From contig WRGW01000112.1 of the NCBI GenBank assembly GCA_009786985.1, forward strand, positions 2,330-66,329: DNA of 64,000 nucleotides, read 5' to 3'. A program made the translations under genes and the position numbers. Below the pieces are notes generated by a model that did not search any database, was not told where the DNA came from, and saw only the letters and a program-made list of their open reading frames with translations. This DNA comes from Oscillospiraceae bacterium. Its GTDB lineage: Bacteria > Bacillota > Clostridia > Oscillospirales > Ruminococcaceae. Below are positions 6,679 through 60,425 of the stretch, piece by piece; the stretch's first letter is position 1, and each line of letters starts with the position of its first letter.

Positions 6679-6729
6679 TCTTCCTACCAGCGTTAGGGTT
6701 TATGATTAATAATAATTTTTTCATTCTTC
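6638..6729. repeat. Perfect 46-bp tandem duplication covering the lipid kinase start
   Basis: CTACCAGCGTTAGGGTTTATGATTAATAATAATTTTTTCATTCTTC at 6638-6683 and 6684-6729. Confidence 0.95.
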
Positions 6730-7425
6730 TTCTATTTCTGTTTCTTGATTAGTGGTGATTGACCGTAAAGCTCGCTCGATTGCTAACCTAAAAAACAACG
6801 GGAGTCGTTGATGTTCGTTTTCGTTAGAAGGTGGAGGGTATCTATCAAGAAGAACATCAGAGTTATCGCCAAGAACATTAGAATCATCACCAGTTGGGAG
6901 TCTGTTATTCTCTTCACCATTTTCAACGCCAGTCAATGCAGTGCTATTGTCATCAGGCACAAAATCCTCTGATTCCGATGGAGAGGTTGGAAAACCAGAA
7001 TAATTTTCTGGATTTTTTGAATCGCTTGAATCAAAGGCTGTGTTATTATTATCAGCCGATTCTAATAAAACAACATTTCCTTCAAACAACAACCCAAATT
7101 CAGAGAGATTTATAAGATAAACAATCCCTACAATAATCACACAAGCAACGGCAGCAATAGAACTCCATACAAATTTAGAACGCCGTGTAATCGTAAAAGG
7201 TTTTAGTTCTTCGAGAGCGTTGTCTTGATTTTTGTCTCGACTTTTATGGACATTGCGTGTTGGTTTAATTTCCTTGATTTCTTGATTTAGACGAGTTTTT
7301 AAACTTTCTAAAAATTCATCACTTGGTTTAATTAGTTCTATATCTTTTTTATAAAGTGTTTTGAAATCGCCAGAGTGATTGTTGTCAGCATCACTGGCAT
7401 GATTAAAATTCAAGTTTTTCTCCAT
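6721..7425 (-). CDS. Putative single-pass membrane anti-sigma factor
   Basis: Directly downstream of and overlapping the ECF sigma gene; one TM segment (FVWSSIAAVACVIIVGIVYLI) and an acidic outer tail. Confidence 0.6.
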   Translation of the reverse strand: MEKNLNFNHASDADNNHSGDFKTLYKKDIELIKPSDEFLESLKTRLNQEIKEIKPTRNVHKSRDKNQDNALEELKPFTITRRSKFVWSSIAAVACVIIVGIVYLINLSEFGLLFEGNVVLLESADNNNTAFDSSDSKNPENYSGFPTSPSESEDFVPDDNSTALTGVENGEENNRLPTGDDSNVLGDNSDVLLDRYPPPSNENEHQRLPLFFRLAIERALRSITTNQETEIEEE

Positions 7426-7936
7426 AAAAATCCACCCCCTTTAGCTTTTCTTTGAGTCGTTTTCTCGCTCTATGTAACAGCGATTTGACGGTATTTGAAC
7501 CGAGTTTGGTTACTTCACAAATTTCAGAAATCTGCAAGTCTTCATAATAAAAAAGGTGAATTATTACACGCTCTTTTTCGGGGAGCGATGCAACAGCTGG
7601 GTATACAGTCATACGAGTTTCGATGCGATGTAACTCTTTATCGCTAGAGGCGTTTGCGGTATTATAAAACGCAAAATCGTCCGTTAAATCGCTTGCAAAC
7701 TCGTGCTGTTTGTACGCTTTTCGAGTGAGCGACGAACTTTCGTTAATAGTAAGCCGGATAAGCCATGCTTTTATATGCTCGCTATTCTCGAAAGCCTTAT
7801 TGTCGTTCTGTACTTGTAATGCTTTTAAGAACACGTTTTGCACAATATCTTCAGCGTCGTGAGAGTTACCAGTGCGTGAAAAAGCTATCCGATAAAGCAT
7901 TTCGGAGTATTCTGCTATTATTTTTTCGACCGTCAT
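7403..7936 (-). CDS. ECF RNA polymerase sigma factor
   Basis: DAEDIVQNVF, KAWLIR, LPEKERVIIHLFYYEDL..EI, TVKSLLHRARKRL. Confidence 0.9.
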   Translation of the reverse strand: MTVEKIIAEYSEMLYRIAFSRTGNSHDAEDIVQNVFLKALQVQNDNKAFENSEHIKAWLIRLTINESSSLTRKAYKQHEFASDLTDDFAFYNTANASSDKELHRIETRMTVYPAVASLPEKERVIIHLFYYEDLQISEICEVTKLGSNTVKSLLHRARKRLKEKLKGVDFYGEKLEF

Positions 7937-8024
7937 ATGCAAAATAAACCACCTTCTGATACTAACACGCAATAGCTTTCTGAAAGGTTGCGGAAAATTG
8001 TATGGAAGTTATATGAATTTACGA

Positions 8025-9395
8025 CTATACTTCCTTGTCTGGCTTAATCATCTTAATCATATCTCCGATTTTGACTCTATCACCATTATGCAAGATGATA
8101 TGCTCATAAACTTTTGCTACAAACAGTGCAAACAAAACTAATGTCGCTATAAGCACCAAAAGAGGGATTGCAATTTCGCTTCCACTAAGCTCACCAGACA
8201 AAATTGCTGGCGGCAATGCAAACGCTGATGAAATCGGAAGGTATCGTGAAAGTATAATCAGAGTATTGTCATTATCTGCTCCGAATATAAACGGAAAATA
8301 AGTCATATACAAACCAAGCGTTGCGAGAATTGCAAGCGGTTGATTCGCAGTTTGCAAATCTTCGATTTTACTGACACTCGCTCCTATTAGACCAGCAATC
8401 AACGAATAAAATAAAAAACCGAAAACAAAAATCACAACAATCAAGGCTATATTAAGCGGATTAAATCCTGCAAACGCATTCGGTAATTCTGCACGAATTT
8501 CCATAAACATAGGGTCATCAGTAGGAACCGAACCTATGATTTCCCCAATCGCTCCATAAGGTGCAGTTATAAAAAATGTCGCTGTTGCAACTCCGCCGAC
8601 TATAACTACAGTAAAAAGCACCACAAGCGTAGAAGCTAAAACTTTCCCGACTACAACAGCAAGCGGTTTAATTGAAGTAAGCAATAATTCCATAACACGT
8701 GACGATTTTTCGGTAGCAATTGCCTGCGATGTTAGCTGGCTATACGTTATAATCAAGACAAACAACAAAATAGAGAACACGGTAGTGACTACTGCACCTA
8801 TACCTTCAGCTACCGCCGAACGCCCTTCTTCTCCACCGACATTAACACTAGTATGAATAAACGCATTCGCTGCCATAAAATCTTCCATCGTTATACCAAG
8901 ATACTCGACATTAGCCACACGTACGATTCCTTCAAAAGTGACGAGTAGTTCAAAACAATCATTTGCATTGATAAGCTCAGTACTTTCGGGGCGTGACATG
9001 ACTACATCAAAACTACCATGTTCATTCGGCGAGATGAGCGTTAGCACAATCGCTTCATCGCTTTCGGTAACACGCTCCATAATCTGGTTGATTTGGTCTT
9101 GGCTAATTAGCTCATACCGAACGTCAATAATCGGCAAAGCACTAAAATCAAGTTGTAATTCTGTGTTGTTGTAGATATATACCTTGTCGATTTCAGATGC
9201 CACAGCTATGATATTTCCTTGGTCGTCGGTGATTAAATTAGGCTCATCGCTAAGCCATCCCGGTAAAAAATTACCCAAAGCAATCATAGCTGAAAGCAGC
9301 AGAGCAGTAATCGCTGTTCCCCAAATAAAAGTTTTAGCTTTGATTGTTTGCATAAAAGTAAATTTCAGAACTTTTTTCCAACCTTTGATTCTCAT
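8025..9395 (-). CDS. ABC-2 type permease (NatB/YhaP-like)
   Basis: One N-terminal TM, large loop, IATEKSSRVMELLLTS motif, multiple C-terminal TMs. Confidence 0.85.
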   Translation of the reverse strand: MRIKGWKKVLKFTFMQTIKAKTFIWGTAITALLLSAMIALGNFLPGWLSDEPNLITDDQGNIIAVASEIDKVYIYNNTELQLDFSALPIIDVRYELISQDQINQIMERVTESDEAIVLTLISPNEHGSFDVVMSRPESTELINANDCFELLVTFEGIVRVANVEYLGITMEDFMAANAFIHTSVNVGGEEGRSAVAEGIGAVVTTVFSILLFVLIITYSQLTSQAIATEKSSRVMELLLTSIKPLAVVVGKVLASTLVVLFTVVIVGGVATATFFITAPYGAIGEIIGSVPTDDPMFMEIRAELPNAFAGFNPLNIALIVVIFVFGFLFYSLIAGLIGASVSKIEDLQTANQPLAILATLGLYMTYFPFIFGADNDNTLIILSRYLPISSAFALPPAILSGELSGSEIAIPLLVLIATLVLFALFVAKVYEHIILHNGDRVKIGDMIKMIKPDKEV

Positions 9396-23086: not shown

Positions 23087-23725
23087 TCAAGCACCAAGAA
23101 TAATATGTGTATAAGATTCTGGAACGTATCCGATAATTACCGTTTGTGCGACGATGAACTGTGTTTCTATGTTAATCGATGTGGTGTAACCTGGAACAAT
23201 CGCAGCAATGTCCGTCGAAACGCTTAATACGATTTGATGGAGCGTTTGATTAATCCCACTTTCGGAAAATTTACTGATTAAATCAATTGTTGCCGAACCA
23301 CGTGGCATTAGCCTAACTGGAATGGCTACTCCACGCCCATATAAAAGATTAAATCCCGAAATCGTCCCGATTGGGATTTTCAGGGTGCTGTCTTCAATAG
23401 TGCTAAGTTCAGCGTTTATGAGTTCAGCTATTCGTGCTTTTAGGCGATTGATGCTCGCCATATCGCTCTCAATTGAAACGACATTGCCGTTATTATCACG
23501 TGTGAGAGTTATGAGAGAACTGTACGCCGCTCGCTCTAACTCTTCGCTAACGGCATTGTTGATTAGCCTTACCGCAATCATCTGACACTGAAATTCCCCA
23601 GCGGCACGAATCATCGGGCGAACTCGTATATCGATTGCAATTAGGGCGATTATTACGATAATTCCTATTATAATCAGCCGAATGCCGATTTTTCTAACTT
23701 TCAGATTTTTTCGTTTTATAAGCAT
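23087..23725 (-). CDS. yunB: Sporulation protein YunB family
   Basis: N-terminal TM, KIPIG, G..IPVRL.P.G, FSESGINQTLH, IG.VPE.Y pattern. Confidence 0.85.
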   Translation of the reverse strand: MLIKRKNLKVRKIGIRLIIIGIIVIIALIAIDIRVRPMIRAAGEFQCQMIAVRLINNAVSEELERAAYSSLITLTRDNNGNVVSIESDMASINRLKARIAELINAELSTIEDSTLKIPIGTISGFNLLYGRGVAIPVRLMPRGSATIDLISKFSESGINQTLHQIVLSVSTDIAAIVPGYTTSINIETQFIVAQTVIIGYVPESYTHIILGA

Positions 23726-28410: not shown

Positions 28411-28554
28411 CCCGCAATTCTCGTTTTGATAAACATCGTGTAGTAATTTGCACGATGTTTTCTACATACTTATGTCTTAACAGCATAAAATGTTCATAAA
28501 AAAACACTTAATTATAATCTTAACATATAGTATAGAATGAAAGGTCGAAATAAA

Positions 28555-30264
28555 ATGGAAAAAATAAAAGAAATCTTCGGAAATTGTAAAGAAACCTTTT
28601 CAAAATTACCCAAAAACACCAAAATCATCGCAATCGGTGGTTCGGGAGTTTTGGTGCTTGCACTAATTGGTGCGGTTGTAGTTGCCACTGGTGATAGCAC
28701 AGGTGGTAATTCTCCAGTTTTTATAACTACTGACGCAGAGAATGTCGAAGACTCACGTGACCAACGTGAAACTGACCCACCTGATGTAGTAGTTTCAGAG
28801 TATCAAGTTCTACTATGCGGAACAGTAATAAATGTTTTGACTGGTGAGGAAGTCGCTTTAGAAGATGTCACCTGCCCCGACACAAGAAGACAAGCAGAAT
28901 CAGTGATTGCTGCATTACTTACTGAAAGCGACATCGATGAAACCACTGCTGAAACCACACTTGCTACAACAGTTACGACTACTGTAGCTACATCACCAGT
29001 TGCGACAACGCCTGGAGAAACTACTCCTGCTACGACTACCGTGGCAACCACTACTGGTACAACTGCTCCTCGTAACTACACTAACGTGATTACACTTAGA
29101 GGTGGCGAAAGACCAACTGCTGATGCGTCTAATGATTGTGTGCGTGTCGATAGCATAGACAACGGTGCGTGGCGTATTTCGATTAGACGACCAGGGCGCT
29201 ATACAATTAATGGCACGATGAATAACGGCATAGTAGTTGTCGGGCGTAATGATGGTTTCCCAGGTGGTGAGGTACATCTCACTCTAAACAACGTTAATAT
29301 CACGAATAACGCAGGTCCTGCGATTCGTGCAACGAGCAGAGTGGGTTCTCTTATAGTCTACAGCCCTGCTGGAACGACTAACAATCTAACTGATACACGT
29401 GCACCAAGGCTTACTGACGAAGAACTCGAAGAAACAAACGCAAATGAAGATACGCTTGCAGATAATAATAACCGTAATGCCGCTTTGTTTACATCTGAAA
29501 CCCCGTTGACTGTAACTGGTAGTGGAACGCTGAATCTTCGTGGGGGACACGCACACGGTATTCACGCACGCGGAACGACTCTTACCGTTTCAAATACAAA
29601 TCTAAACGTTCAGTCGGCACACGCTAACGGGCTTCGTTCGCGTCACGCTATGGTAATTGATAACTCTCGACTTAATCTAAATGTAAATAGAAAAGGTTTA
29701 CGTGTGGCGGGTGCACAACATGGCAACCTCACAATTCGTAACGGCTCTATACTTAACATAACATCTCGTAGCGATGCTGTTCATGCTGAAGTTAATGTTA
29801 ATATTCTTGGTAATAGTAATATAACCGCAACAGTTGGCGGTGGCTTTGGGAGAGGTAACAACGTCCCTGCAGATATCGGAAGTAGACGTGGTATTCGTGC
29901 GACAGGGAATATCGTTATTACTGGCGGAACTTTTGTTCTTGACGTAGCTGAAGACGGCATTAACGCTTCTGGAAGTACTACGGTTAATAACGCAACTTTG
30001 AGAATTGCAGCACATAATCGCGGAATACGCGGTCAATCTGGTTTAACTCTCAACAACACCACTACAACGATTGCTTATTCAAGATTGGCGTTTCATGGTG
30101 GTGGTGTGCGTGGCTCACACGTTACAATCAATGGTGGAAGAACTACTGCTCATTTCTTAGAAACCGTAAACAACATGAATCTTCCACGATTCACTCACCC
30201 AGATAATGTTAATTTTAGCAGATGTCAAGGAAGAAATTGTAACGTATCACACAACGTGAGTTAA
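28555..30264 (+). CDS. Membrane-anchored carbohydrate-binding beta-helix protein (Cthe_2159/DUF4353-like)
   Basis: N-terminal TM, Thr-rich linker, ITISxxGxY-like and V.L.LNNVNITN motifs, GSGTL, DAVH, EDGINA; gene context VTC-DUF4956. Confidence 0.75.
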   Translation: MEKIKEIFGNCKETFSKLPKNTKIIAIGGSGVLVLALIGAVVVATGDSTGGNSPVFITTDAENVEDSRDQRETDPPDVVVSEYQVLLCGTVINVLTGEEVALEDVTCPDTRRQAESVIAALLTESDIDETTAETTLATTVTTTVATSPVATTPGETTPATTTVATTTGTTAPRNYTNVITLRGGERPTADASNDCVRVDSIDNGAWRISIRRPGRYTINGTMNNGIVVVGRNDGFPGGEVHLTLNNVNITNNAGPAIRATSRVGSLIVYSPAGTTNNLTDTRAPRLTDEELEETNANEDTLADNNNRNAALFTSETPLTVTGSGTLNLRGGHAHGIHARGTTLTVSNTNLNVQSAHANGLRSRHAMVIDNSRLNLNVNRKGLRVAGAQHGNLTIRNGSILNITSRSDAVHAEVNVNILGNSNITATVGGGFGRGNNVPADIGSRRGIRATGNIVITGGTFVLDVAEDGINASGSTTVNNATLRIAAHNRGIRGQSGLTLNNTTTTIAYSRLAFHGGGVRGSHVTINGGRTTAHFLETVNNMNLPRFTHPDNVNFSRCQGRNCNVSHNVS

Positions 30265-37379: not shown

Positions 37380-38267
37380 CTAATATACACTCATAATCCT
37401 AATTCTACCAGAAGTCAAATTCAATTCTGCGGTTTGAATATTTTCTCCACCGAAGTTTATTCCGCTTGCTGTACCTATTCTTCCAGAATCATCACCTAAC
37501 TCATAATGAATTCTCCCTGAAGTCACCCTACTATTAAGCCTAATGCCAGAGTTTTCAGGGAGGTGAATGTTCAAATCTCCACTTGTTACGTTTGCTTTGA
37601 AAGATTCGTTCCATTTTACATATCGCAACGTAACATTACCAGAGGTCAGTCTAACCTCGCCATTACCCGAAACGCCGTTTAAATCTACTGTGCCAGAAGT
37701 CACCCTCACTGTATAGTTTTCGTAAACAGAAACATCTGCTTCTATACGCCCGCTGGTAATTCGTGTATTTAGATTTTTACTATCAAGCGTGAAGTTTTCG
37801 GTGGCGAGACTTCCGCTAGTCAAACGTAGATAGATGTTGTCATATTGTCTTTTGGGAAGCCAAATTCGCATATTAACTCGTGCGTTAATGCCGAATAGTT
37901 GAATGCCCCGTCGCCATCTTTCACGAACGTAGAGTGTATCGTTTTGCACTATAGTTTCGAGCGAGGCTAAATTATTGCTATGTGAAAACTCGATTCTCGT
38001 TTTTTCATCATCAGAAGCGGCAATCACTATATTAGAACTTACACCATGTATGTTGACGTTTGAGAATATTTCGTCTATTTCGGTTATTTCGCCATTGTTT
38101 AAGTTGGTACCAGTAATATTCGCAAAATCACCCCACGAAATGTGTAGATACGGCATAGTATCGTTTGGCGAACTTAACATAGTTACAGCAAAGCCCAAAG
38201 ACGAAATCGCAAATACAGTTGCAAATATAATTGCCAAATTCCTAATTAGTTTTTTTGATTTTTTCAT
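37380..38267 (-). CDS. DUF4097 family beta-strand repeat protein
   Basis: N-terminal TM/signal, repeated xTSGx motifs; context PadR-DUF1700. Confidence 0.8.
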   Translation of the reverse strand: MKKSKKLIRNLAIIFATVFAISSLGFAVTMLSSPNDTMPYLHISWGDFANITGTNLNNGEITEIDEIFSNVNIHGVSSNIVIAASDDEKTRIEFSHSNNLASLETIVQNDTLYVRERWRRGIQLFGINARVNMRIWLPKRQYDNIYLRLTSGSLATENFTLDSKNLNTRITSGRIEADVSVYENYTVRVTSGTVDLNGVSGNGEVRLTSGNVTLRYVKWNESFKANVTSGDLNIHLPENSGIRLNSRVTSGRIHYELGDDSGRIGTASGINFGGENIQTAELNLTSGRIRIMSVY

Positions 38268-43838: not shown

Positions 43839-46592
43839 ATGGCAGAACGTAAAAAAACTAATTCAAAAACGGCAGAAAAAGCTCGCCGTGATTTAGAAAA
43901 AGAACAGGCAATCAAACGAAACCAAAGAAAACGCCACATTTATTCGGTGCTACTGTTTGTCATCGGGTTGTTAGTGATGGCGTTTTCGGTCGTTTCTCTT
44001 AGCGACACTGGTCCCGCTTGGTACGCTATTCATAGATTTTTGCGAGGAGTTTTTGGACTATCGGTTTTTGTGATTGGTCCTGTTTTGATTTATGCGTCAG
44101 TCATGTTAGCGAAAACTGTTCATAAATCGGCATTAGTGGTTAAGATGCTCCAATTGACTGTGATGATTCTTTTAGCAAGCGGTGCTGTACAGGTGATTGC
44201 GGTGGGAGAAGTCGTTGGAATCGGCGAAATGTACCGTGCTGGACAAGAGCTTTCTGGTGGTGGTGTTGTCGGAATGATTCTCGGTTTCCCGCTAAGCCTG
44301 TTTGGTCGAGTTGGGGGGAGCATTATTGTACTCCTAATCCTTTTTGTATTTATTATGCTTATGGGAAATATCACTGTAGATGCGTTTTTGAAACTGGTTG
44401 TAAAGCCTTTTAAAAAAGCTCACTCTTTCGCAAAACAACAGCACGCACTACATAAACAAGAAGCTGAATATTTAGCCGAAGCAAGAGAAGAAACTGCCAA
44501 ACAAGCTGAAACTGATATGGCATACGCAAAAATGAAAGCGGCGGAGCAAAAAATCGAGGAAGAAATCGGTGGCAAAGCTAAGCTCGGCGAAATAGAAGCA
44601 GTGATTGAATCTGACGTTTCTGACGTGCCAGAAGTTCCAAACAAATCTGATGTAACAAATGAATCGGAGTCTGATGCTATAGATGAATCAGACATAATCA
44701 CTGATTCAAAAACGCTGGACTTACCTACACCTCCTGTGTATATCGCACCTGACGAAAATTCAGATGAACCACCATTCGACATAGAATCAGTCGATAATCC
44801 TGCTGTTGTTGCACTTGATGAACTTCAAAAGCAAGAAGGGCTCGAAAGTACTGAAAAAGAACAGCTGGAAAGCTCGGTTATAGCTAGCGTATCTGGAACT
44901 GCGACTGACTCAGAAGTTGGCAGTGTCACCGAAACATCAGATGATATAGAAAGTAAACCCAAATCAGATTTTGAACGACTAAACGCATTGGCAGCTTTTG
45001 CGGCACATCAACAACTTTATTCGCTACCAGGGGTCGATTTACTTGACGAAGTTGTTAAAAAACGCACTGAATCGGATGTCGAGTCCGAACTTGAAGCTAA
45101 TTCGATTAAGTTAGTTGAAACGCTAAAGAGCTTTGGGGTTTTGACTAAGATTGTTGGAGTAGTCCGTGGTCCGTCTGTAACTCGATATGAAATTCAACCA
45201 GCACCCGGTGTAAAAATCTCTAAGATTACCAATCTCACTGACGACATCGCACTAAATTTAGCGGCGGCGGGTGTACGAATGGAAGCACCTATACCAGGGA
45301 AATCGGCGGTTGGAGTAGAAGTCCCTAACACTATTCGTGATATGGTGGCTTTTCGTGAACTAATCGATTCTGACGAGTTTCGTAAAGCTGGTGAGAGTTC
45401 AGGTAATGGTGATGACGGCAAGCTTGCTACAGTAATCGGGCGAGATATTACGGGCGAAATCATTATTTCCGATATAGCAAAAATGCCACATATCTTGATT
45501 GCGGGGACAACTGGTTCTGGTAAATCAGTTTGTGTAAACTCGATTATTATGAGTATTCTTTACAGAGCGACACCCGACGAAGTCCGTCTGATGATGATTG
45601 ACCCTAAGATGGTGGAGTTTGCTATTTATAGCGGAATCCCTCATTTATTAACACCAGTAGTCACCGACCCTAAAAAAGCCGCAGGTGCATTGGGTTGGGC
45701 GGTTAATGAGATGACACGGCGGTATTCATTATTCGCTGAAAATAACGTGCGTAATATAGGGGAGTTTAATCAAAAAGTCAAGAACACGAAGTCTGACGTG
45801 GCGTTTACTGATACTAAGCGTGGCGATATTTCAGATGAAGACCTTTTACTAAATGAAGAACAAAAACCCGAACTTGAGTTCATGGCAAAAATCATAATTT
45901 TTATCGATGAGCTTGCCGACCTTATGATGACTGCTGCTAAAGAAGTTGAGGGCAATATATGCAGATTAGCACAACTTGCAAGAGCAGCGGGAATCCATCT
46001 TGTAATCGCAACCCAACGCCCTACCACTAATGTCGTGACTGGGCTAATCAAAGCAAATATTCCGAGCAGAATAGGGCTGAAAGTTGCATCACAAGTTGAC
46101 TCACGCGTTATTTTCGATACAGCAGGTGCCGAAAAGCTACTTGGTAATGGTGATATGCTTTACGCCCCTACTGGTAGCCCTAAACCTATTCGAGTTCAGG
46201 GGTGCTGGGTTGCAAATGAAGAAATCAACCGAGTTGTAAAGTTCGTTAAAGATAATTTTGACTTTAGTTACGACACTGATGTAATTGAAGAAATCGAACG
46301 CCATACAGCGGCACTCGATGAAAAAGACAGCAAAGGTGGCGACGCAATCGAGGAGTTTGAGATGAGCGACGATAAGTTGGAAGACGCAATCGAAGCAGTA
46401 ATTGACGCTGGAAAAGCTTCGACTTCTTACTTACAGCTCAAGCTAAAATTAGGATACGGGAGAGCTGCTCGTATTATGGATATTATGGAACGAATGGGGG
46501 TAATCGGGAAATCAACTGGTGCAAGTAAACCGCGTGAAGTTTTGATGACTCGTCAAGACTGGTTGGAGAGGAAGTTGCATCAGAATGAATGA
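43839..46592 (+). CDS. ftsK: DNA translocase FtsK/SpoIIIE
   Basis: N-terminal TMs, GPSVTRYE, AGTTGSGKS, MIDPK, ATQRP, GAEKLLG.GDML, gamma domain. Confidence 0.95.
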   Translation: MAERKKTNSKTAEKARRDLEKEQAIKRNQRKRHIYSVLLFVIGLLVMAFSVVSLSDTGPAWYAIHRFLRGVFGLSVFVIGPVLIYASVMLAKTVHKSALVVKMLQLTVMILLASGAVQVIAVGEVVGIGEMYRAGQELSGGGVVGMILGFPLSLFGRVGGSIIVLLILFVFIMLMGNITVDAFLKLVVKPFKKAHSFAKQQHALHKQEAEYLAEAREETAKQAETDMAYAKMKAAEQKIEEEIGGKAKLGEIEAVIESDVSDVPEVPNKSDVTNESESDAIDESDIITDSKTLDLPTPPVYIAPDENSDEPPFDIESVDNPAVVALDELQKQEGLESTEKEQLESSVIASVSGTATDSEVGSVTETSDDIESKPKSDFERLNALAAFAAHQQLYSLPGVDLLDEVVKKRTESDVESELEANSIKLVETLKSFGVLTKIVGVVRGPSVTRYEIQPAPGVKISKITNLTDDIALNLAAAGVRMEAPIPGKSAVGVEVPNTIRDMVAFRELIDSDEFRKAGESSGNGDDGKLATVIGRDITGEIIISDIAKMPHILIAGTTGSGKSVCVNSIIMSILYRATPDEVRLMMIDPKMVEFAIYSGIPHLLTPVVTDPKKAAGALGWAVNEMTRRYSLFAENNVRNIGEFNQKVKNTKSDVAFTDTKRGDISDEDLLLNEEQKPELEFMAKIIIFIDELADLMMTAAKEVEGNICRLAQLARAAGIHLVIATQRPTTNVVTGLIKANIPSRIGLKVASQVDSRVIFDTAGAEKLLGNGDMLYAPTGSPKPIRVQGCWVANEEINRVVKFVKDNFDFSYDTDVIEEIERHTAALDEKDSKGGDAIEEFEMSDDKLEDAIEAVIDAGKASTSYLQLKLKLGYGRAARIMDIMERMGVIGKSTGASKPREVLMTRQDWLERKLHQNE

Positions 46593-48495
46593 GCAGTATA
46601 AAGGTTTCCTGCCGATTAGCCAAAGAGAACTTGAAATAGGCGAACAGCTTGATTTTATTTGCGTCACTGGTGACGCTTATGTAGATCACCCGTCTTTCGG
46701 AATAGCGATTGTATCACGACTTTTACAGAGCCGTGGCTTTAGCGTTGGTATAATCGCACAGCCAGTCAGCGATTCGGCGTTTTCGGAGTTTGGAGAACCG
46801 CGTTATGCTTTTATGGTGAGTGGTGGCAATATAGATTCAATGGTAGCAAACTACACCGTGTCTGGCAAGAAACGCCATAAAGATGATTATAGTGCTGGCG
46901 GTGTCGGCGGAAAACGTCCTGATTATGCTGTAAAAACGTATTGTAAAACAATCAAACGCCTTTTTCCGAACGTTGGAATAATTATAGGAGGGCTTGAAGC
47001 ATCGTTACGACGATTCGCACACTATGATTTCTGGAGCGACAAAGTCCTCCCTTCTTTGTTGATTTCAAGCGGTGCAGATTTGCTGATTTACGGCATGGCA
47101 GAACTCACGTTAGTTCAACTTTGTGACAAATTGCATAACGGCGATTCTTTGCGAAATATTACAGATTTACTCGGAACGTGTTATACAGCTTCTCCAGATA
47201 AAATGATAGAATTGCAAGGTAGAGAGGCTAAGGAAAATTTTAAAGGAATCCGCCAGTGTGACAGTTTTGAACTGGTTTCGACTAATAAGACTTGTTATGC
47301 CAAATCAGCGGTGATTCAGCATGAAGAGCAGGATGAAGTTAGCGGGCGAATGATTGTTCAAAGACATGGCGAAGTCATGCTGGTACAAAACCCTCCACAA
47401 CGTAGCCTTGCCGAGAGTGAACTCAGTCAGATTTACGAACTACCATTTATGCGAAAACCCCACCCCATCTATAAACCAGTTGGTGGTGTTCCTGCGATTA
47501 GAGAAGTCGAGTTTTCGCTTACTTGGAATCGGGGTTGTTTTGGTGGATGCAATTTTTGTTCGATTGCTTTACATCAAGGGCAAAAAGTCCAGTCACGTAG
47601 CGAAAGTTCGGTTTTAGCTGAAGCCGAAAAATTTCTTGAAAATCGTGATTTTAAGGGTTACATACACGATGTCGGCGGTCCGACTGCAAACTTTTCTTCC
47701 TCTGCTTGCAAAAAACAGAGCCAACAAGGTGCGTGCAAGCGAAAATGCTTAGTACCTACACCTTGTCCTAATCTAAAAATCACGCACGAAAAATATCTAC
47801 AGCTTTTGCGAAAACTCCGTAAAATCGACGGTGTTAAAAAAGTGTTTATTCGCTCTGGAATCCGCTATGATTACCTGCTCGCCGACCAAAGCAAAGCTGG
47901 GCGGGAATTTTTTCGCGAATTAGTGGTAGAGCATACATCAGGTCAACTAAAAGTCGCACCAGAGCATTGCAAATCTGGCGTACTTGATATGATGGGTAAG
48001 CCAAAAATTTCAGTGTTCGAGAAGTTTTGTAATGAATTTAACACAATTACTAAACGTGCGGGAAAAGAACAGTATCTTGTTCCGTACCTAATGTCGTCTC
48101 ATCCAGGGGCAACTCTTGATGATGCGTTGGACTTAGCGGTATGGCTAAAAAAACGCAAAATTCGCCCTGAACAAGTGCAGGACTTTTATCCAACACCGGG
48201 GACGATTTCTACCGCAATGTATTACACAGGGTTAAATCCGTATACTCTCGAAAAGATTTATGTCGCAAAATCTCAACAGCAGAGAGCCACTCAACGAGCA
48301 TTATTACAATACTACAAGCACGAAAACAGAGCGTTATTTGAAAAGCTGTTGGCACAGCGTGAAAAACGCAATAGTTCTAACAATAACAAAAGAGGTAAAA
48401 TCAATGCCAATAAATTCAAACAGAGCAGCCCAAAAAATAATTCGAGCCAAAACCAGAATGCCCAGAAATTCAAGAAGACGCGGAAAAAGAAATAG
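46585..48495 (+). CDS. YgiQ family radical SAM protein
   Basis: GDAYVDHPSFG, RGCFGGCNFCSI, HDVGGPTAN, QVQDFYPTP. Confidence 0.92.
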   Translation: MNEQYKGFLPISQRELEIGEQLDFICVTGDAYVDHPSFGIAIVSRLLQSRGFSVGIIAQPVSDSAFSEFGEPRYAFMVSGGNIDSMVANYTVSGKKRHKDDYSAGGVGGKRPDYAVKTYCKTIKRLFPNVGIIIGGLEASLRRFAHYDFWSDKVLPSLLISSGADLLIYGMAELTLVQLCDKLHNGDSLRNITDLLGTCYTASPDKMIELQGREAKENFKGIRQCDSFELVSTNKTCYAKSAVIQHEEQDEVSGRMIVQRHGEVMLVQNPPQRSLAESELSQIYELPFMRKPHPIYKPVGGVPAIREVEFSLTWNRGCFGGCNFCSIALHQGQKVQSRSESSVLAEAEKFLENRDFKGYIHDVGGPTANFSSSACKKQSQQGACKRKCLVPTPCPNLKITHEKYLQLLRKLRKIDGVKKVFIRSGIRYDYLLADQSKAGREFFRELVVEHTSGQLKVAPEHCKSGVLDMMGKPKISVFEKFCNEFNTITKRAGKEQYLVPYLMSSHPGATLDDALDLAVWLKKRKIRPEQVQDFYPTPGTISTAMYYTGLNPYTLEKIYVAKSQQQRATQRALLQYYKHENRALFEKLLAQREKRNSSNNNKRGKINANKFKQSSPKNNSSQNQNAQKFKKTRKKK

Positions 48496-49423
48496 AAGTG
48501 GCGGAGTTATGCTCTTGCTTATAATCATAATTGGAATTGCTGTCCTTATAAATCATTATGGTTGGGAACGTATTACTGACTTTCTAGGTCTTAGCGAGAA
48601 CACACCACCAGCACCTCCACCTGCCGAAGGAGCAGTTCAGGTTCATTTTATTGATGTAGGTCAAGGTAGTGCAACACTAATTATTTCGGAAGAGAGGAGT
48701 GTTTTAATCGACACGGGTGACAGGCGGTACTACAGCCGACTAATCGGGTATATCAGACGTATGGGAATCGAACGGCTTTGCTTGATTATTACTACTCATC
48801 CTCATGCTGACCATATCGGTGGAGTTGATAGAGTGATTAGCCGAATCGGCACAGACAGGCTTATGAAACCACAAATCGCCGAGCAATTTCGACCGACTAC
48901 CGCTACCTATGGGCGTAAACTCGATGCTGTAGAACGGTATGGCGTTCCAGTGGTTTACTCAACAGTCGGTTATGTATTCTGGCTTAGTGATAGTGCGTTT
49001 ATTGAAATTCTTGCTCCGTATGATTGTTTTGGTAATAACGTCAACAATCATTCGATTATTGCAAGGTTGGTTCATGGTGACAACTCATTTTTATTTACTG
49101 GCGATGTTGAACGTGATGGCGAAGATTGTCTAATTTATCGGCGTGTGAATTTGTCGGCGAACGTCCTCAAAGTTTCACATCACGGTAGCAGAACTTCGAG
49201 CCAACGAGCTTTTCTTGAAGCAGTCACACAAAATATTTTTCCCTACAATGATTTATATGCGGTGATTAGTGTTGGTTCGCCCAACCGCTACAATCACCCT
49301 ACTGACGAGGTTTTGAACAGACTAGATGTGATGGGGTTTGATATTCTTAGAACCGATACACATGGTCATATAGTTTTTACGAGTACTGTTGATGGGGTGG
49401 AATTGGTGTATAGTGATGAGTAA
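48404..49423 (+). CDS. ComEC/Rec2-like metallo-beta-lactamase, membrane anchored
   Basis: FIDVGQG, THPHADHIGG, FTGD, KVSHHGS, YNHP. Confidence 0.88.
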   Translation: MPINSNRAAQKIIRAKTRMPRNSRRRGKRNRSGGVMLLLIIIIGIAVLINHYGWERITDFLGLSENTPPAPPPAEGAVQVHFIDVGQGSATLIISEERSVLIDTGDRRYYSRLIGYIRRMGIERLCLIITTHPHADHIGGVDRVISRIGTDRLMKPQIAEQFRPTTATYGRKLDAVERYGVPVVYSTVGYVFWLSDSAFIEILAPYDCFGNNVNNHSIIARLVHGDNSFLFTGDVERDGEDCLIYRRVNLSANVLKVSHHGSRTSSQRAFLEAVTQNIFPYNDLYAVISVGSPNRYNHPTDEVLNRLDVMGFDILRTDTHGHIVFTSTVDGVELVYSDE

Positions 49424-51429: not shown

Positions 51430-51653
51430 AATACGTATTTATCGGTTTGATTAAATTATATCAAGCTACCATATCTAAAATAACACCACCCGTATGCCGA
51501 TTCACTCCGAGCTGCTCTGCATACGCTGTAACAGCTTTCGGGCGTTTCGGCGTGTTCAAGGGTGGCTATTTGACTTTGCGGAGAATTTTGCGATGTCACC
51601 CGTTTAGTGAGGGTGGATATGACCCTGTTGAACAGTCGACAGTTGACGGTTGA
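51426..51653 (+). CDS. yidD: Membrane protein insertion efficiency factor
   Basis: [23 protein letters not shown]. Confidence 0.95.
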
Positions 51654-51688
51654 CTGTTTCCGACTATATTTACGTTACGGAGAATTTA

Positions 51689-53119
51689 ATGGATTTTTTG
51701 TTTAATCTACCTTTGATTACCCCTGCTTTAGGGTTTATCATGCGACTTTGTTATTCTTTGGTAGGGAATGTAGGAGTTGCGATTATTGTGTTCACAATTA
51801 TTATAAGGATTGTGATGTTCCCGCTTTCTGTGAAACAGCAGAAAAATACCTCTAAAACGCAGATTTTTGCACCACGTCTTCGCGAAATTCAACAGAAATA
51901 TCGTGGAAATACACAGATGATGCAAGCGGAAATGGCAAAGTTGCAAAAAGAGGGGTATAATCCTGCAAGTGGTTGTCTTCCGACTCTCGCTACTATGCTT
52001 ATACTCTTCGGGGTACTTGGTGTAGTTTATAGCCCGTTGACTTATTTTGAGAGAATCGATGATACACAACTTGAAGTAATTGAAAGCATAGCTATTCGAG
52101 TTGACGCTGAGGGAATTTATGCCGAACTAATCGACCAGCATATTATGGCTAACCCAGTAACTCTTGATGAACCGAGTGATGAAGATAGTGACACTGACAC
52201 CTCCGAAACTGTTCGTGAACCTATACTTTTGGAATACGAAGATATAGACGAAGAGGTGCGTGGAGAACTTCGTGCAACAGCAGCAAGCCGTGCTCAAATA
52301 CCTTTTAACCGCATTCAAAGTCAGCTTGAAATTATGCGTGTCTTCCGCGAAAATCCTGAAGCGTTTTCGGGGATTGATTCTGAATCACGTCGTAAGATGG
52401 AAATCATTCAAAGACGAATTGTTTTCGCTGGAATCGATTTTAGCGAAACACCTACACGTTCATGGCCTACGATTATGATTCCACTCTTGTCGTTTATATT
52501 TGCGGCAGGACAGACTATAATCATGCAATACGTTCAGAAAAAAACATCACCCGAAGCTGTTAAACAGATGGGTATGATGCGATATATGATGTATGGTATG
52601 CCGATTATGTCGCTTGTAATTGCGTTCCAGTTTCCAGCTGGTGCAGGTTTTTACTGGGCGATTTCTGGAGCAGTCGGAATTATTCAAAGTTTAGTGATTT
52701 TCAAAATCTGGCCACCAGACAAATTGCGTGAAGAGGTTATGGCGGCTCTGGACAGCAAGGGTGGCGACAATGTTGTTGTAATCGAAAAACATGATGGACG
52801 CAAAGTTGAGAAAAAAGCCTCACAAATGTCTGGAAAAGAAGAGAAAGAATATTATCGCAAAAAGCTAGAAGAAGCTCGAAAAGCTGATTTGAAAAAATAC
52901 GGTGAAGTCGGCGAGTTACCACCAGAAGTGAGTGAAAAGCTAGAAAAACTCGACCAATCAGAAGAACCTGAAAGTTTTGAAACGCCAATGATTGAAGTTG
53001 ATTCTGCAGTTTCTGTTGAATCACAAAATTCAGATGCCACACTAATCACCTGTAAAGACTGTGGAGCTACTAACGATAACGAACGCCAGAAATGTCGCTC
53101 ATGTGGCAAAAAACTGTAA
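51689..53119 (+). CDS. yidC: YidC/Oxa1 membrane protein insertase with large loop and C-terminal zinc ribbon
   Basis: PL..KQQK, GCLP, FPAG.GFYW; operon position; likely start ATG 51689. Confidence 0.9.
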   Translation: MDFLFNLPLITPALGFIMRLCYSLVGNVGVAIIVFTIIIRIVMFPLSVKQQKNTSKTQIFAPRLREIQQKYRGNTQMMQAEMAKLQKEGYNPASGCLPTLATMLILFGVLGVVYSPLTYFERIDDTQLEVIESIAIRVDAEGIYAELIDQHIMANPVTLDEPSDEDSDTDTSETVREPILLEYEDIDEEVRGELRATAASRAQIPFNRIQSQLEIMRVFRENPEAFSGIDSESRRKMEIIQRRIVFAGIDFSETPTRSWPTIMIPLLSFIFAAGQTIIMQYVQKKTSPEAVKQMGMMRYMMYGMPIMSLVIAFQFPAGAGFYWAISGAVGIIQSLVIFKIWPPDKLREEVMAALDSKGGDNVVVIEKHDGRKVEKKASQMSGKEEKEYYRKKLEEARKADLKKYGEVGELPPEVSEKLEKLDQSEEPESFETPMIEVDSAVSVESQNSDATLITCKDCGATNDNERQKCRSCGKKL

Positions 53120-58800: not shown

Positions 58801-59027
58801 GTAACATAAAAAACTGAATACGTCAAGCAAAATAAAGCCAAAGCACAGCTTTGTCTTTGTTTTGCTCTTGCTATTATAACACATTTTTTTGAAAATTGCA
58901 AGCAAAATTTTGAATTTTGAAAAAAAAATTAAAAATTTTGCAACCTTTCTATATCGAGAAGCGTTTTATTAGTATTAAGTCACCGACAAAGTCATGGTTT
59001 AATAATTGTACGAAAGGTAAAAAATTC

Positions 59028-60425
59028 ATGAAAAATACTAAAGGTTCTAAAAAAACACTCAAAATTATGGCACTGGCGTTAATTACGATGCTCCTGCTCA
59101 CATTGGTGGCTTGTAATAGCGATGATATAAACCATGTGGTTGAAAACGTTCCTGAACGTGGACGCACTAGTGAAAACGGTGAGGCTGATAATAATTCAGT
59201 GCTTGAAGGGCATTCTGCTGATTACGCACTTGAAGGCGATTCCGTTGATGACATAGTAGATATAGTAGTGGGGGGCGTAGATTTAGGGGAAGTGGGCGAT
59301 GTTGATAGCGATATGAGAATGAGCGACGATGAACATCATTTTGTGGAACCAATCCCTCCTGCTGGTGGCGAAACACAATACCCTGATATAGAGCTTTTGC
59401 CAATCGAACCGGGTCAACTTACAGCTGGTGAGTGGAACGATAACGCTAATTTGGATTTGTGGAACTCTCTTTTCCGCAATGCACCGTGGCGAAATTTCCC
59501 GCAGACGTGGGGGCTTTCGACTGCGAATCGTATTATAGTGAATGTCACAAATGGCGATTCACCAATACGTAATGCGCGTGTCGAGCTTTTTGGTAGCAAT
59601 GATGACCCACTTTGGGTTTCACGCACTGACCATAATGGGAGAGCGTTTGTGTTCGGTGACTCTGACCCACAATCACAAACTGGGGCTTCTCACATAATTG
59701 TGACTATGGGTTCGATTGAAGAGCGTGTGAATGTCGGGAGTTCTGATACTATAACAGTCGATTTAAGTGGTGCAACTTCTCCAACCCGAGCGCTTGATTT
59801 GATGTTTGTAATCGACACCACTGGTTCAATGGGAGATGAATTGCGTTATTTGCAAGCCGAACTTGAAGATGTGATTGATTCTGTTCGTAGCCAAAATTCT
59901 AGCTTGCCGATTAGGCTTTCGATGAACTTCTACCGTGACCACGGTGATGATTATGTAGTTCTCCCTCATTCGTTTACCGAAGATATTCCTGAAGCTATTC
60001 GTATTCTTGGTAGGCAGAGTGCGGCTGGTGGCGGTGACTGGCCTGAAGCTGTAGCCGAAGCACTCGAAAACGCCGTGTTTGAACACGATTGGCACGAAGA
60101 TTCGATAAAGTTGATGTTTTTAGTTCTCGACGCACCAGGTCACGAAAACCCAGAGTCGATTGCAACTATAAACAAAGCCGTGCGTGAAGCAAGCGAAAAA
60201 GGAATACGTATAATCCCTATTCAAGCGAGTGGGAATATGGGTTTGTATGATACAATCACCGAATTTAAAATGCGTGCATTCAGTATTTTGACTGGTGGAA
60301 CTTATACCTTCCTTACCAGTGATTCAGGCATAGGTAATCCACACAACGAACCTACCATCGGTGCATTTCAAGTTGAAATGTTAAATGAAATGTTGGTGCG
60401 GATTATTAACGAATATATTTCATGA
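59028..60425 (+). CDS. Lipoprotein with von Willebrand factor A domain
   Basis: Lipobox LVAC, DLMFVIDTTGSM MIDAS motif, GGGDWPEAV, LDAPGH. Confidence 0.88.
   Translation: MKNTKGSKKTLKIMALALITMLLLTLVACNSDDINHVVENVPERGRTSENGEADNNSVLEGHSADYALEGDSVDDIVDIVVGGVDLGEVGDVDSDMRMSDDEHHFVEPIPPAGGETQYPDIELLPIEPGQLTAGEWNDNANLDLWNSLFRNAPWRNFPQTWGLSTANRIIVNVTNGDSPIRNARVELFGSNDDPLWVSRTDHNGRAFVFGDSDPQSQTGASHIIVTMGSIEERVNVGSSDTITVDLSGATSPTRALDLMFVIDTTGSMGDELRYLQAELEDVIDSVRSQNSSLPIRLSMNFYRDHGDDYVVLPHSFTEDIPEAIRILGRQSAAGGGDWPEAVAEALENAVFEHDWHEDSIKLMFLVLDAPGHENPESIATINKAVREASEKGIRIIPIQASGNMGLYDTITEFKMRAFSILTGGTYTFLTSDSGIGNPHNEPTIGAFQVEMLNEMLVRIINEYIS

Follow-up and report, generated by a model that had tools for sequence, protein, structure and literature searches.

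Why would a surface protein carry lysine on the cytoplasmic side of the membrane and almost none on the other? The question is raised by a gene at 28537-30264 (+) in a 64,000-nucleotide stretch of an Oscillospiraceae genome, hereafter the window (GenBank assembly GCA_009786985.1, contig WRGW01000112.1, positions 2,330 to 66,329 of the forward strand). The gene encodes a beta-helix protein of 575 residues. We found that exposed domains are depleted of Lys genome-wide, beyond chance, and that Tyr is replaced by Phe in the same domains. Proteome-wide adaptation of everything exposed to the very alkaline fluid of a termite hindgut compartment, P1, is the likely explanation, and we infer that pH is the selective agent.

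Lysine on the two sides of the membrane

The beta-helix protein consists of a short tail, one transmembrane (TM) helix, a Thr/Pro-rich linker, and a carbohydrate-binding beta-helix of the Cthe_2159 family. It matches PF14262 over nearly the whole profile (positions 5 to 259 of 262; E value 3e-43, 148 bits for a cut-off of 25.8). The cytoplasmic N-terminal tail, residues 1 to 29 (28537..28623, +), contains eight Lys, at positions 2, 6, 9, 11, 18, 23, 26, and 29. It is followed by the single TM anchor, IIAIGGSGVLVLALIGAVVVA, which a hydropathy scan places at about residues 30 to 50 (28624..28686, +). The extracytoplasmic part, made of the linker and the beta-helix (28687..30264, +; Pfam domain at 29176-30015), has a sole Lys, K386 (nucleotides 29692-29694). 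The other relevant counts in this ectodomain of 525 residues are 40 Arg, 14 His, 58 Asn, 5 Tyr, and 9 Phe. A preliminary description made from the letters of the window had counted 6 Lys in the 23 residues before the TM segment and 1 in about 525 after it, with abundant Arg, His, and Asn. Our counts agree with it when the protein is taken from M7 (alternative start at 28555). At the Lys frequency of cytoplasmic proteins of the same genome, the probability of finding at most one Lys in 518 residues of the ectodomain is 6e-18. The linker also has an extreme Thr/Pro/Ala-rich run at 28900-29040 (…TTAETTLATTVTTTVATSPVATTPGETTPATTTVATTTGTTAP…), typical of glycosylated linkers in cellulolytic Clostridia.

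We analyzed the whole metagenome-assembled genome (MAG; 1,812,795 bp, 112 contigs, 40.5% GC; G000 in the comparisons below). About 1,400 genes were called with a home-made open reading frame (ORF) picker based on codon usage, and their products were classed by hydropathy. Proteins without any hydrophobic stretch, i.e., the cytoplasmic class, contain 8.06% Lys and 4.99% Arg (130,509 residues), versus 1.99% Lys (median, 1.16%) and 5.93% Arg in domains located outside, after a single N-terminal TM segment or signal (160 proteins, 54,556 residues). The N-terminal tails that precede the TM segment are at the other extreme, with 14.8% Lys and 8.0% Arg. The contrast between Lys-poor outer domains and Lys-rich cytoplasmic proteins and tails, first proposed from the window, thus holds across the proteome. 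Expressed as the ratio K/(K+R), a check that had been suggested at that stage, it amounts to 0.25 outside versus 0.62 inside. Lys and Arg together still make up 7.9% of outside residues, and the content of acidic residues (Asp plus Glu) is nearly the same outside (13.8%) and inside (13.9%). Twenty-one outside domains of 80 to 890 residues contain no Lys at all. In non-membrane segments of at least 40 residues, the distribution of Lys content is bimodal in the MAG, with modes below 1% and at 8 to 10%, and unimodal in its relatives.

The Lys-rich tail of the outside class consists of misclassified cytoplasmic proteins (IF-3, acetylglutamate kinase, GlmM, SpoIIIAA, NAD synthase, prephenate dehydrogenase, RNase Y, and others). 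These have a hydrophobic N terminus or, in the case of RNase Y, an anchored but cytoplasmic domain. The means therefore understate the true contrast. When the loops of multi-pass proteins were oriented by the Lys and Arg content of short loops, the difference in Lys content of the long loops was moderate (6.9% versus 4.8%). Because TM calls by hydropathy make parity errors in such proteins, we put the weight on N-terminally anchored proteins and on the segment histogram.

Lys content alone separates cytoplasmic proteins from outside domains with an area under the curve of 0.93 in the MAG, compared with 0.76 in species of the same genus. It also places the membrane-anchored RNase Y domain in the cytoplasm, where this enzyme works. 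The idea that the signature could predict topology is thus borne out.

A cell that is limited or auxotrophic for lysine might spare this amino acid on proteins that it cannot recycle. The cell does lose the proteins that it secretes, and diets of plant origin are generally known to be Lys-poor. However, such economy is hard to reconcile with 8% Lys in cytoplasmic proteins and 15% in inside tails, or with the purge of membrane-bound proteins, which are recyclable. In addition, the MAG codes for a near-full-length homolog of diaminopimelate decarboxylase (lysA-like; 263 bits, short of the 298 required for an equivalog), and the replacement of Tyr by Phe described below would be left unexplained. 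We regard this explanation as extremely improbable.

Habitat, relatives, and direction of substitution

The DNA of the window occurs only in sequencing runs labeled "termite gut metagenome." In humus- and soil-feeding Termitidae, the P1 compartment reaches about pH 10 to 12. The genome is MAG Nt197P1_bin1, recovered from a sample of hindgut compartment P1 of Neocapritermes taracua, a termite that feeds on humus (Hervé et al. 2020, PMC7024585, supplementary table 2). In that paper, P1 is called "highly alkaline," and P3/P4 are called "moderately alkaline or circumneutral" (PMC7024585). Sample metadata, which the preliminary description had named as a check, thus lead to a highly alkaline compartment. 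Two unlabeled fields in the table row of Nt197P1_bin1 (396.311 and 1.31022) look like coverage and percent relative abundance.

We compared the MAG with 12 genomes of the same genus and 8 of the same order, from each of which 19 to 152 kb were sampled and treated with the same pipeline. The median Lys content of outside domains is 1.16% in the MAG, 3.56% in two congeners from P3 (Nt197P3_bin88 from N. taracua and Th196P3_bin48 from Termes hospes), 5.40% in the ten other congeners, and 6.67% in same-order genomes of comparable GC. The fractions of outside domains with less than 2.5% Lys are 71%, 28%, 6%, and 3%, respectively. The differences are significant between the MAG and the other congeners (Mann-Whitney test, P = 1.5e-16), between the MAG and the P3 congeners (P = 3e-6), and between the latter and the other congeners (P = 1.5e-3). 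Cytoplasmic Lys ranges from 6.2 to 8.5% across the same-genus samples. In named rumen and gut Clostridia, pooled, the mean outside Lys content is 8.9%. Two congeners with ordinary Lys were traced to other sources: G005 occurs in rabbit-gut runs, and G004 in "gut" and "wildlife" metagenome runs. Congeners traced to the guts of rabbits or other animals have 5 to 7% Lys outside. Relatives from neutral habitats might have shared the bias, which was the outcome proposed for refuting an adaptation to the niche; they do not, and the P3 species are intermediate. Outside Lys rises stepwise over the three known habitats, P1 < P3 < other guts, as in a dose series.

We then considered which residues take the place of Lys. 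The outside-minus-inside shift of the MAG, relative to that of non-termite congeners, is −4.4 percentage points for Lys, +2.9 for Arg, +1.2 for Phe, +0.85 for His, about +1.0 each for Gly, Asn, and Pro, +0.27 for Gln, −1.5 for Tyr, −1.7 for Ser, −0.6 for Glu, and 0.0 for Asp, with Cys unchanged. Outside Lys itself is 2.0% in the MAG and 5.7% in these congeners. We counted substitutions in reciprocal ortholog alignments between the MAG and the non-termite congeners. Lys residues of the congeners are retained in the MAG at 55% of cytoplasmic sites versus 17.5% of outside sites. In outside orthologs, Lys was replaced by Arg 83 times and Arg by Lys 10 times (P = 2e-15), compared with 76 and 84 times in the cytoplasm. 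The asymmetry is even stronger for Tyr, with 91 replacements of Tyr by Phe for 2 in the reverse direction outside (P = 9e-25), versus 51 and 26 in the cytoplasm. Relative to the P3 congeners, the outside counts are 37 Lys to Arg for 5 Arg to Lys, and 42 Tyr to Phe for 8 Phe to Tyr. The two residues replaced in this one-way fashion, Lys and Tyr, are those whose side chains titrate at about pH 10 to 10.5.

The outside domains of the MAG and the P3 congeners are about 52% identical, and their cytoplasmic orthologs about 77%. In a tree of penicillin-binding proteins (PBPs), described below, long stems lead to the Lys-poor clades. To judge from these alignments and branch lengths, evolution seems to have been much faster in the exposed proteome than in the cytoplasmic one.

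Avoidance of a Lys-specific protease in the gut lumen, whether produced by the bacterium itself, a competitor, or the host, had been put forward as an alternative. It would account for the loss of Lys with preservation of Arg, which a general trypsin-like threat would not. In contrast, it leaves unexplained the equally strong one-way Tyr-to-Phe stream (91:2), the graded series from P1 through P3 to neutral guts, and the purge in rod proteins embedded in the periplasm or the wall. The protease proposal thus fits poorly, and we consider it very unlikely.

The adaptation to alkaline fluid that we favor could operate as follows. At about pH 10.5 to 12, the Lys amine (pKa ∼10.5) and the Tyr phenol (pKa ∼10) would lose or change charge, and the deprotonated side chains would also turn into reactive nucleophiles. 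Exposed Lys and Tyr could be costly either through lost charge and fold stability or through covalent damage to the deprotonated side chains. Selection would then purge both residues from virion proteins and exported parts of the flagellum as well as from extracytoplasmic domains. Lys would give way chiefly to Arg, which stays protonated, and otherwise to Glu, Gln, Asn, Ser, or Ala, and Tyr chiefly to Phe. Only functionally indispensable Lys would be kept, such as those of the SxxK and K(S/T)G motifs of PBPs. In the pH-buffered cytoplasm, inside proteins and tails would keep ordinary Lys, and Lys alone would carry the positive-inside signal.

Covalent chemistry might instead be the primary cause, with Lys and Tyr removed to avoid tanning by quinones or oxidized humic phenolics, or cross-linking through lysinoalanine or dityrosine. 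The host is a humus feeder, both residues are nucleophilic once deprotonated, and Ser, the precursor of dehydroalanine, is lower outside than in the congeners (−1.7 points). Against this, His rises by 0.85 points although it adds to quinones as well, and there is no change in Cys, the most effective nucleophile toward quinones. Such chemistry moreover needs high pH itself, and is thus a sub-case of adaptation to alkalinity, not a competing account. Of the earlier suggestion that amine-reactive phenolics or quinones exert the selection, a pH-dependent contribution is thus possible, but the rise of His and the constancy of Cys speak against these compounds as the sole agent. As the primary cause, covalent chemistry is unlikely in our view.

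The two class-B PBPs of the MAG (contigs C102:8355-10751 and C82:7636-9909) illustrate what is retained. Both keep the active-site Lys of SxxK (GSVFK and GSTYK) and K(S/T)G (GGKSGT and AYKTGT), with most others lost. Across the exoproteome, the Lys that survive may point to essential positions, in the manner of a natural lysine scan.

Other exposed proteins and the route of export

The composition of exposed domains might be an artefact of mis-binned or horizontally acquired genes of higher GC, or reflect a constraint of Sec translocation on Lys. Replacement of Lys by Arg does raise local GC, and the segment of the window that holds the beta-helix gene has 43% GC versus about 40%. However, a genomic GC of 40% by itself favors Lys, GC at third codon positions is 0.35 for inside and 0.34 for outside sequences, and contamination of the MAG, determined with a CheckM-type estimate, is 0.02%.

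Moreover, the switch in Lys content takes place within single housekeeping proteins of the window. In YidC (gene 51650-53119), the large extracytoplasmic loop (52049..52465, +) has 1 Lys and 14 Arg in 139 residues, and the cytoplasmic C-terminal tail has 20 Lys and 6 Arg in 138. The large extracytoplasmic loop of an ABC-2 permease (8820..9269, −; gene 8025-9395) has 1 Lys and 5 Arg in 150 residues, and its N-terminal tail 6 Lys in 21. The extracytoplasmic tail of an anti-sigma factor (6724..7080, −; gene 6721-7425, downstream of an extracytoplasmic function sigma factor gene at 7403-7972) has 1 Lys and 6 Arg in 119 residues, for 11 Lys in the 82 residues of the cytoplasmic part. Together with the equal third-position GC, these internal switches exclude GC, horizontal transfer, or binning as the source of the bias.

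Other anchored or exported products of the window show the same scarcity. A VWA-domain lipoprotein or anchored protein (58917..60425, +) has 13 Lys in its first 45 residues, and 4 Lys and 22 Arg in the 433 residues outside. The outside domains of a DUF4097 (toastrack) anchored protein (37380..38267, −) and of the anchored sporulation protein YunB (23087..23725, −) have 5 Lys and 20 Arg in 269 residues and 3 Lys and 8 Arg in 171 residues, respectively. A protein with a metallo-beta-lactamase domain (48488..49420, +; PF00753; ORF 48260-49423) has at most 3 Lys in 311 residues. Our recounts agree with those of the preliminary description for the VWA protein, the DUF4097 protein, the YidC loop, the permease loop, and the anti-sigma tail (4, 5, 1, 1, and 1 Lys). 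Its count of 3 Lys in about 290 residues of a "ComEC-like" protein also stands, the ORF in question being that of the metallo-beta-lactamase protein. The longest ORF for the latter shares about 235 nucleotides (48260-48495) with the radical-SAM gene that precedes it (46585-48495), and the real start of the metallo-beta-lactamase gene probably lies further downstream than 48260.

Proteins that leave the cell by other routes bear on the Sec constraint. Of 703 MAG proteins of at least 150 residues without a predicted TM segment, 20 have at most 2.5% Lys. Those of the 20 that were annotated are the flagellar hook protein FlgE (679 residues, 0.3% Lys), flagellar rod proteins (1.2% Lys), and the baseplate J, Mu gp48-like, and YqbQ-like proteins of a prophage (0.8 to 2.5% Lys, about 10% Arg), all of which lack a signal peptide. 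The hook and rod exit by the flagellar export apparatus, and the prophage proteins are released by lysis. The bias thus tracks final exposure rather than passage through Sec, and an artefact, whether of gene origin or of translocation, is to us barely conceivable. The tail and baseplate genes are located on another contig than the window (C54:5413-10531), the upstream genes of which code for proteins with 5 to 7.6% Lys. Alkalinity seems to constrain virion proteins as it does the surface of the host, and prophage virion composition would track that of the exposed proteins of the host. The hook and rod genes sit on contig C103. A search of the MAG for flagellin (PF00669) gave no match; the gene was possibly lost in assembly or binning.

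Many large secreted enzymes of the MAG (GH5-like and others), encoded at C85:2913-5219, C88:18666-21377, C64:2986-7419, C98:3128-6817, C104:9602-11596, and elsewhere, contain short modules rich in Cys in which the pattern C-x3-(N/T)-C-x2-C recurs (e.g., CLVPNCPLC, CQVPNCPDC, and CPIPNCTTC). Sixteen proteins match a loose version of this pattern. GH5-type enzymes are encoded at C85:2913-5219 and C90:12230-14188. Some also have dockerin-like "ITIADALAILRYLVDL" repeats.

Convergence and comparison with known systems

We scanned a PBP ectodomain against 1.84 billion representative proteins and obtained 150 homologs, with a median Lys content of 5.9%. Among the Lys-poor homologs, P0121 has 0.7% Lys and 8.2% Arg; its contig has 40.5% GC, and its cytoplasmic neighbors have 4.6 to 6.5% Lys. 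P0090 has 1.2% Lys and is encoded on a contig of 52% GC. Two others, P0038 and P0085, were dropped as GC effects, their contigs having 61 to 64% GC and cytoplasmic genes that are also Lys-poor. A copy of P0121 with 84% identity is carried by L207, a 174-kb JGI contig that occurs in a different termite-gut sample. The outside part of the L207 PBP has 5 Lys and 58 Arg in 717 residues, and the cytoplasmic neighbors have 4.8 to 10% Lys. When 400 genomes of the order were searched, those nearest to L207 and P0121 proved to be members of another family (f21), with at most 46% identity and with ordinary PBPs.

The L207 PBP shares the shift in Lys, Arg, Tyr, Phe, and His with the MAG. It contains 0.7% Lys, 8.1% Arg, 2.7% Tyr, and 3.9% Phe, versus means of 5.6, 2.8, 6.0, and 2.5% in its f21 relatives. 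The corresponding values are 1.9, 6.8, 3.1, and 3.7% for the MAG versus means of 5.0, 2.6, 5.7, and 2.4% for non-termite congeners, with the P3 congeners intermediate (means of 4.4, 5.4, 4.0, and 2.6%). In a quick IQ-TREE phylogeny of 33 PBPs (fast search only), the MAG and the two P3 species group inside their own genus (support, 100), and L207 and L191 inside the f21 clade on a long stem (support, 96). L192, also Lys-poor, groups with a third family (support, 91), on a long branch that makes its placement uncertain. Shared composition would pull Lys-poor PBPs together, yet they fall apart in the tree, arguing for separate origins. The phylogeny thus indicates at least two independent origins of Lys-poor exposed PBPs, and probably three.

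The preliminary description had proposed selection on exposed amines in a very alkaline niche, for example a segment of an insect gut. The provenance from P1, the gradient among congeners, the direction of substitution, and the convergence all support this proposal. Several points weigh against it. Gene calls and topology were obtained with crude, home-made ORF and hydropathy scripts. Of the 13 members of the genus that were compared, 3 have a known compartment of origin, and among these the species from P3 are sisters of the one from P1, so that few independent contrasts lie behind the gradient. The alkalinity of P1 in N. taracua is taken from a general statement of the source paper, and L207 is traced to the termite gut as a whole. 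Asn, which deamidates at high pH, rises outside instead of falling. A search for the Mrp antiporter subunit G (PF03334) found it neither in the MAG nor in any of the 20 relatives, which makes this marker uninformative. Finally, a cultured alkaliphile, Alkalihalophilus pseudofirmus OF4, behaved differently in the sample that we used (200 kb of plasmid pBpOF4-01, NC_013792, plasmid genes only). Its outside domains have 4.1% Lys and 2.7% Arg, with a K/(K+R) ratio of 0.60 equal to that inside, and 15 to 25% Asp plus Glu. Lys and Arg are both lowered and acidic residues raised, without exchange of Lys for Arg, showing that this exchange is not universal among alkaliphiles.

Our analysis is direct evidence, drawn from the genome, that a clostridium of the termite gut, as yet uncultured, inhabits a compartment of pH 10 to 12 and has been shaped by it rather than being in transit. 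The contrast between outside and inside Lys and Tyr offers a simple index for placing uncultured microbes along steep gut pH gradients. The MAG also represents a natural proteome-scale mutagenesis, with cellulases, proteases, binding proteins, and PBPs, hundreds in all, remade nearly without Lys and with little Tyr. A rule for the design of alkali-stable enzymes, and a set of parts for them, could be drawn from it, and surviving Lys would mark catalytically essential positions. It is in our judgment as likely as not that the joint purge of Lys and Tyr generally marks life above about pH 10 in insect guts, as a convergent and graded signature that differs from the acidic-surface strategy of cultured Bacillus alkaliphiles. 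If so, the contrast would serve as a "pH-meter" readable from the genome only, assigning uncultured gut bacteria to P1, P3, or neutral niches. Membrane topology would then be predictable from it as well, and so would the few Lys that each exported protein cannot do without.

The closest precedents are single enzymes of alkaliphilic Bacillus. In M-protease and alkaline cellulase K, Lys is less frequent, and Arg, His, Asn, and Gln are more frequent (Shirai et al. 1997, as summarized in PMC8153356). Alkaline GH5 mannanases have fewer Tyr and more Arg, changes that the authors held to be "specific for each protein" (PMC3059134). The MAG resembles these enzymes by its decrease of Lys, its increase of Arg, His, and Asn, and, as in the mannanases, its decrease of Tyr, and it shares the rationale that Arg holds its charge at high pH (PMC8153356, PMC3059134). 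Of the pattern of Shirai et al., fewer Lys and more Arg together with His, Asn, and Gln are found in the MAG. For Asp and Glu, which also decrease in that pattern, the shifts are 0.0 and −0.6 points, with similar sums outside and inside and no clear decrease. Unlike in the single enzymes, the shift covers nearly every exposed domain, with membrane proteins of housekeeping function, parts of the flagellum, and a prophage among those affected, drives outside Lys to about 1%, and is paired with the stream from Tyr to Phe.

The acidic-surface Bacillaceae, represented here by OF4, likewise have an exposed proteome adapted to pH above 10 and a cytoplasm kept near neutral. Their strategy, i.e., an increase of Asp plus Glu and a decrease of both Lys and Arg, is shown by the OF4 plasmid sample and not by the MAG, which holds the sum of Lys and Arg at 7.9% and that of the acidic residues at 13.8%, and trades Lys for Arg. 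This charge-preserving exchange would represent a second evolutionary answer to extreme alkalinity, beside the acidic surface of Bacillus. The MAG also conforms to the positive-inside rule in that positive charge marks cytoplasmic tails and loops, as shown by the composition of the N-terminal tails. This rule does not normally apply to long domains. In the MAG, unlike what the rule describes, Lys is almost confined to the inside even in long domains, and Arg is at least as frequent outside as inside.

Growth pH has been predicted from the composition of extracellular versus intracellular proteins, with R/(R+K) among the features (Barnum et al. 2024, bioRxiv 10.1101/2024.03.22.586313). In the passages of that work located by keyword, the highlighted correlate of pH is a difference in Glu, and a near-complete purge of Lys, a stream from Tyr to Phe, or cases from insect guts were not found. 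Our literature search retrieved no report of a proteome-wide, topology-sharp purge of Lys, of a paired Tyr-to-Phe stream, or of either in termite-gut bacteria, which is not proof of novelty. The principle is already known from single enzymes; the scale of the shift, its sharpness, the Tyr component, and the convergence appear to be new.

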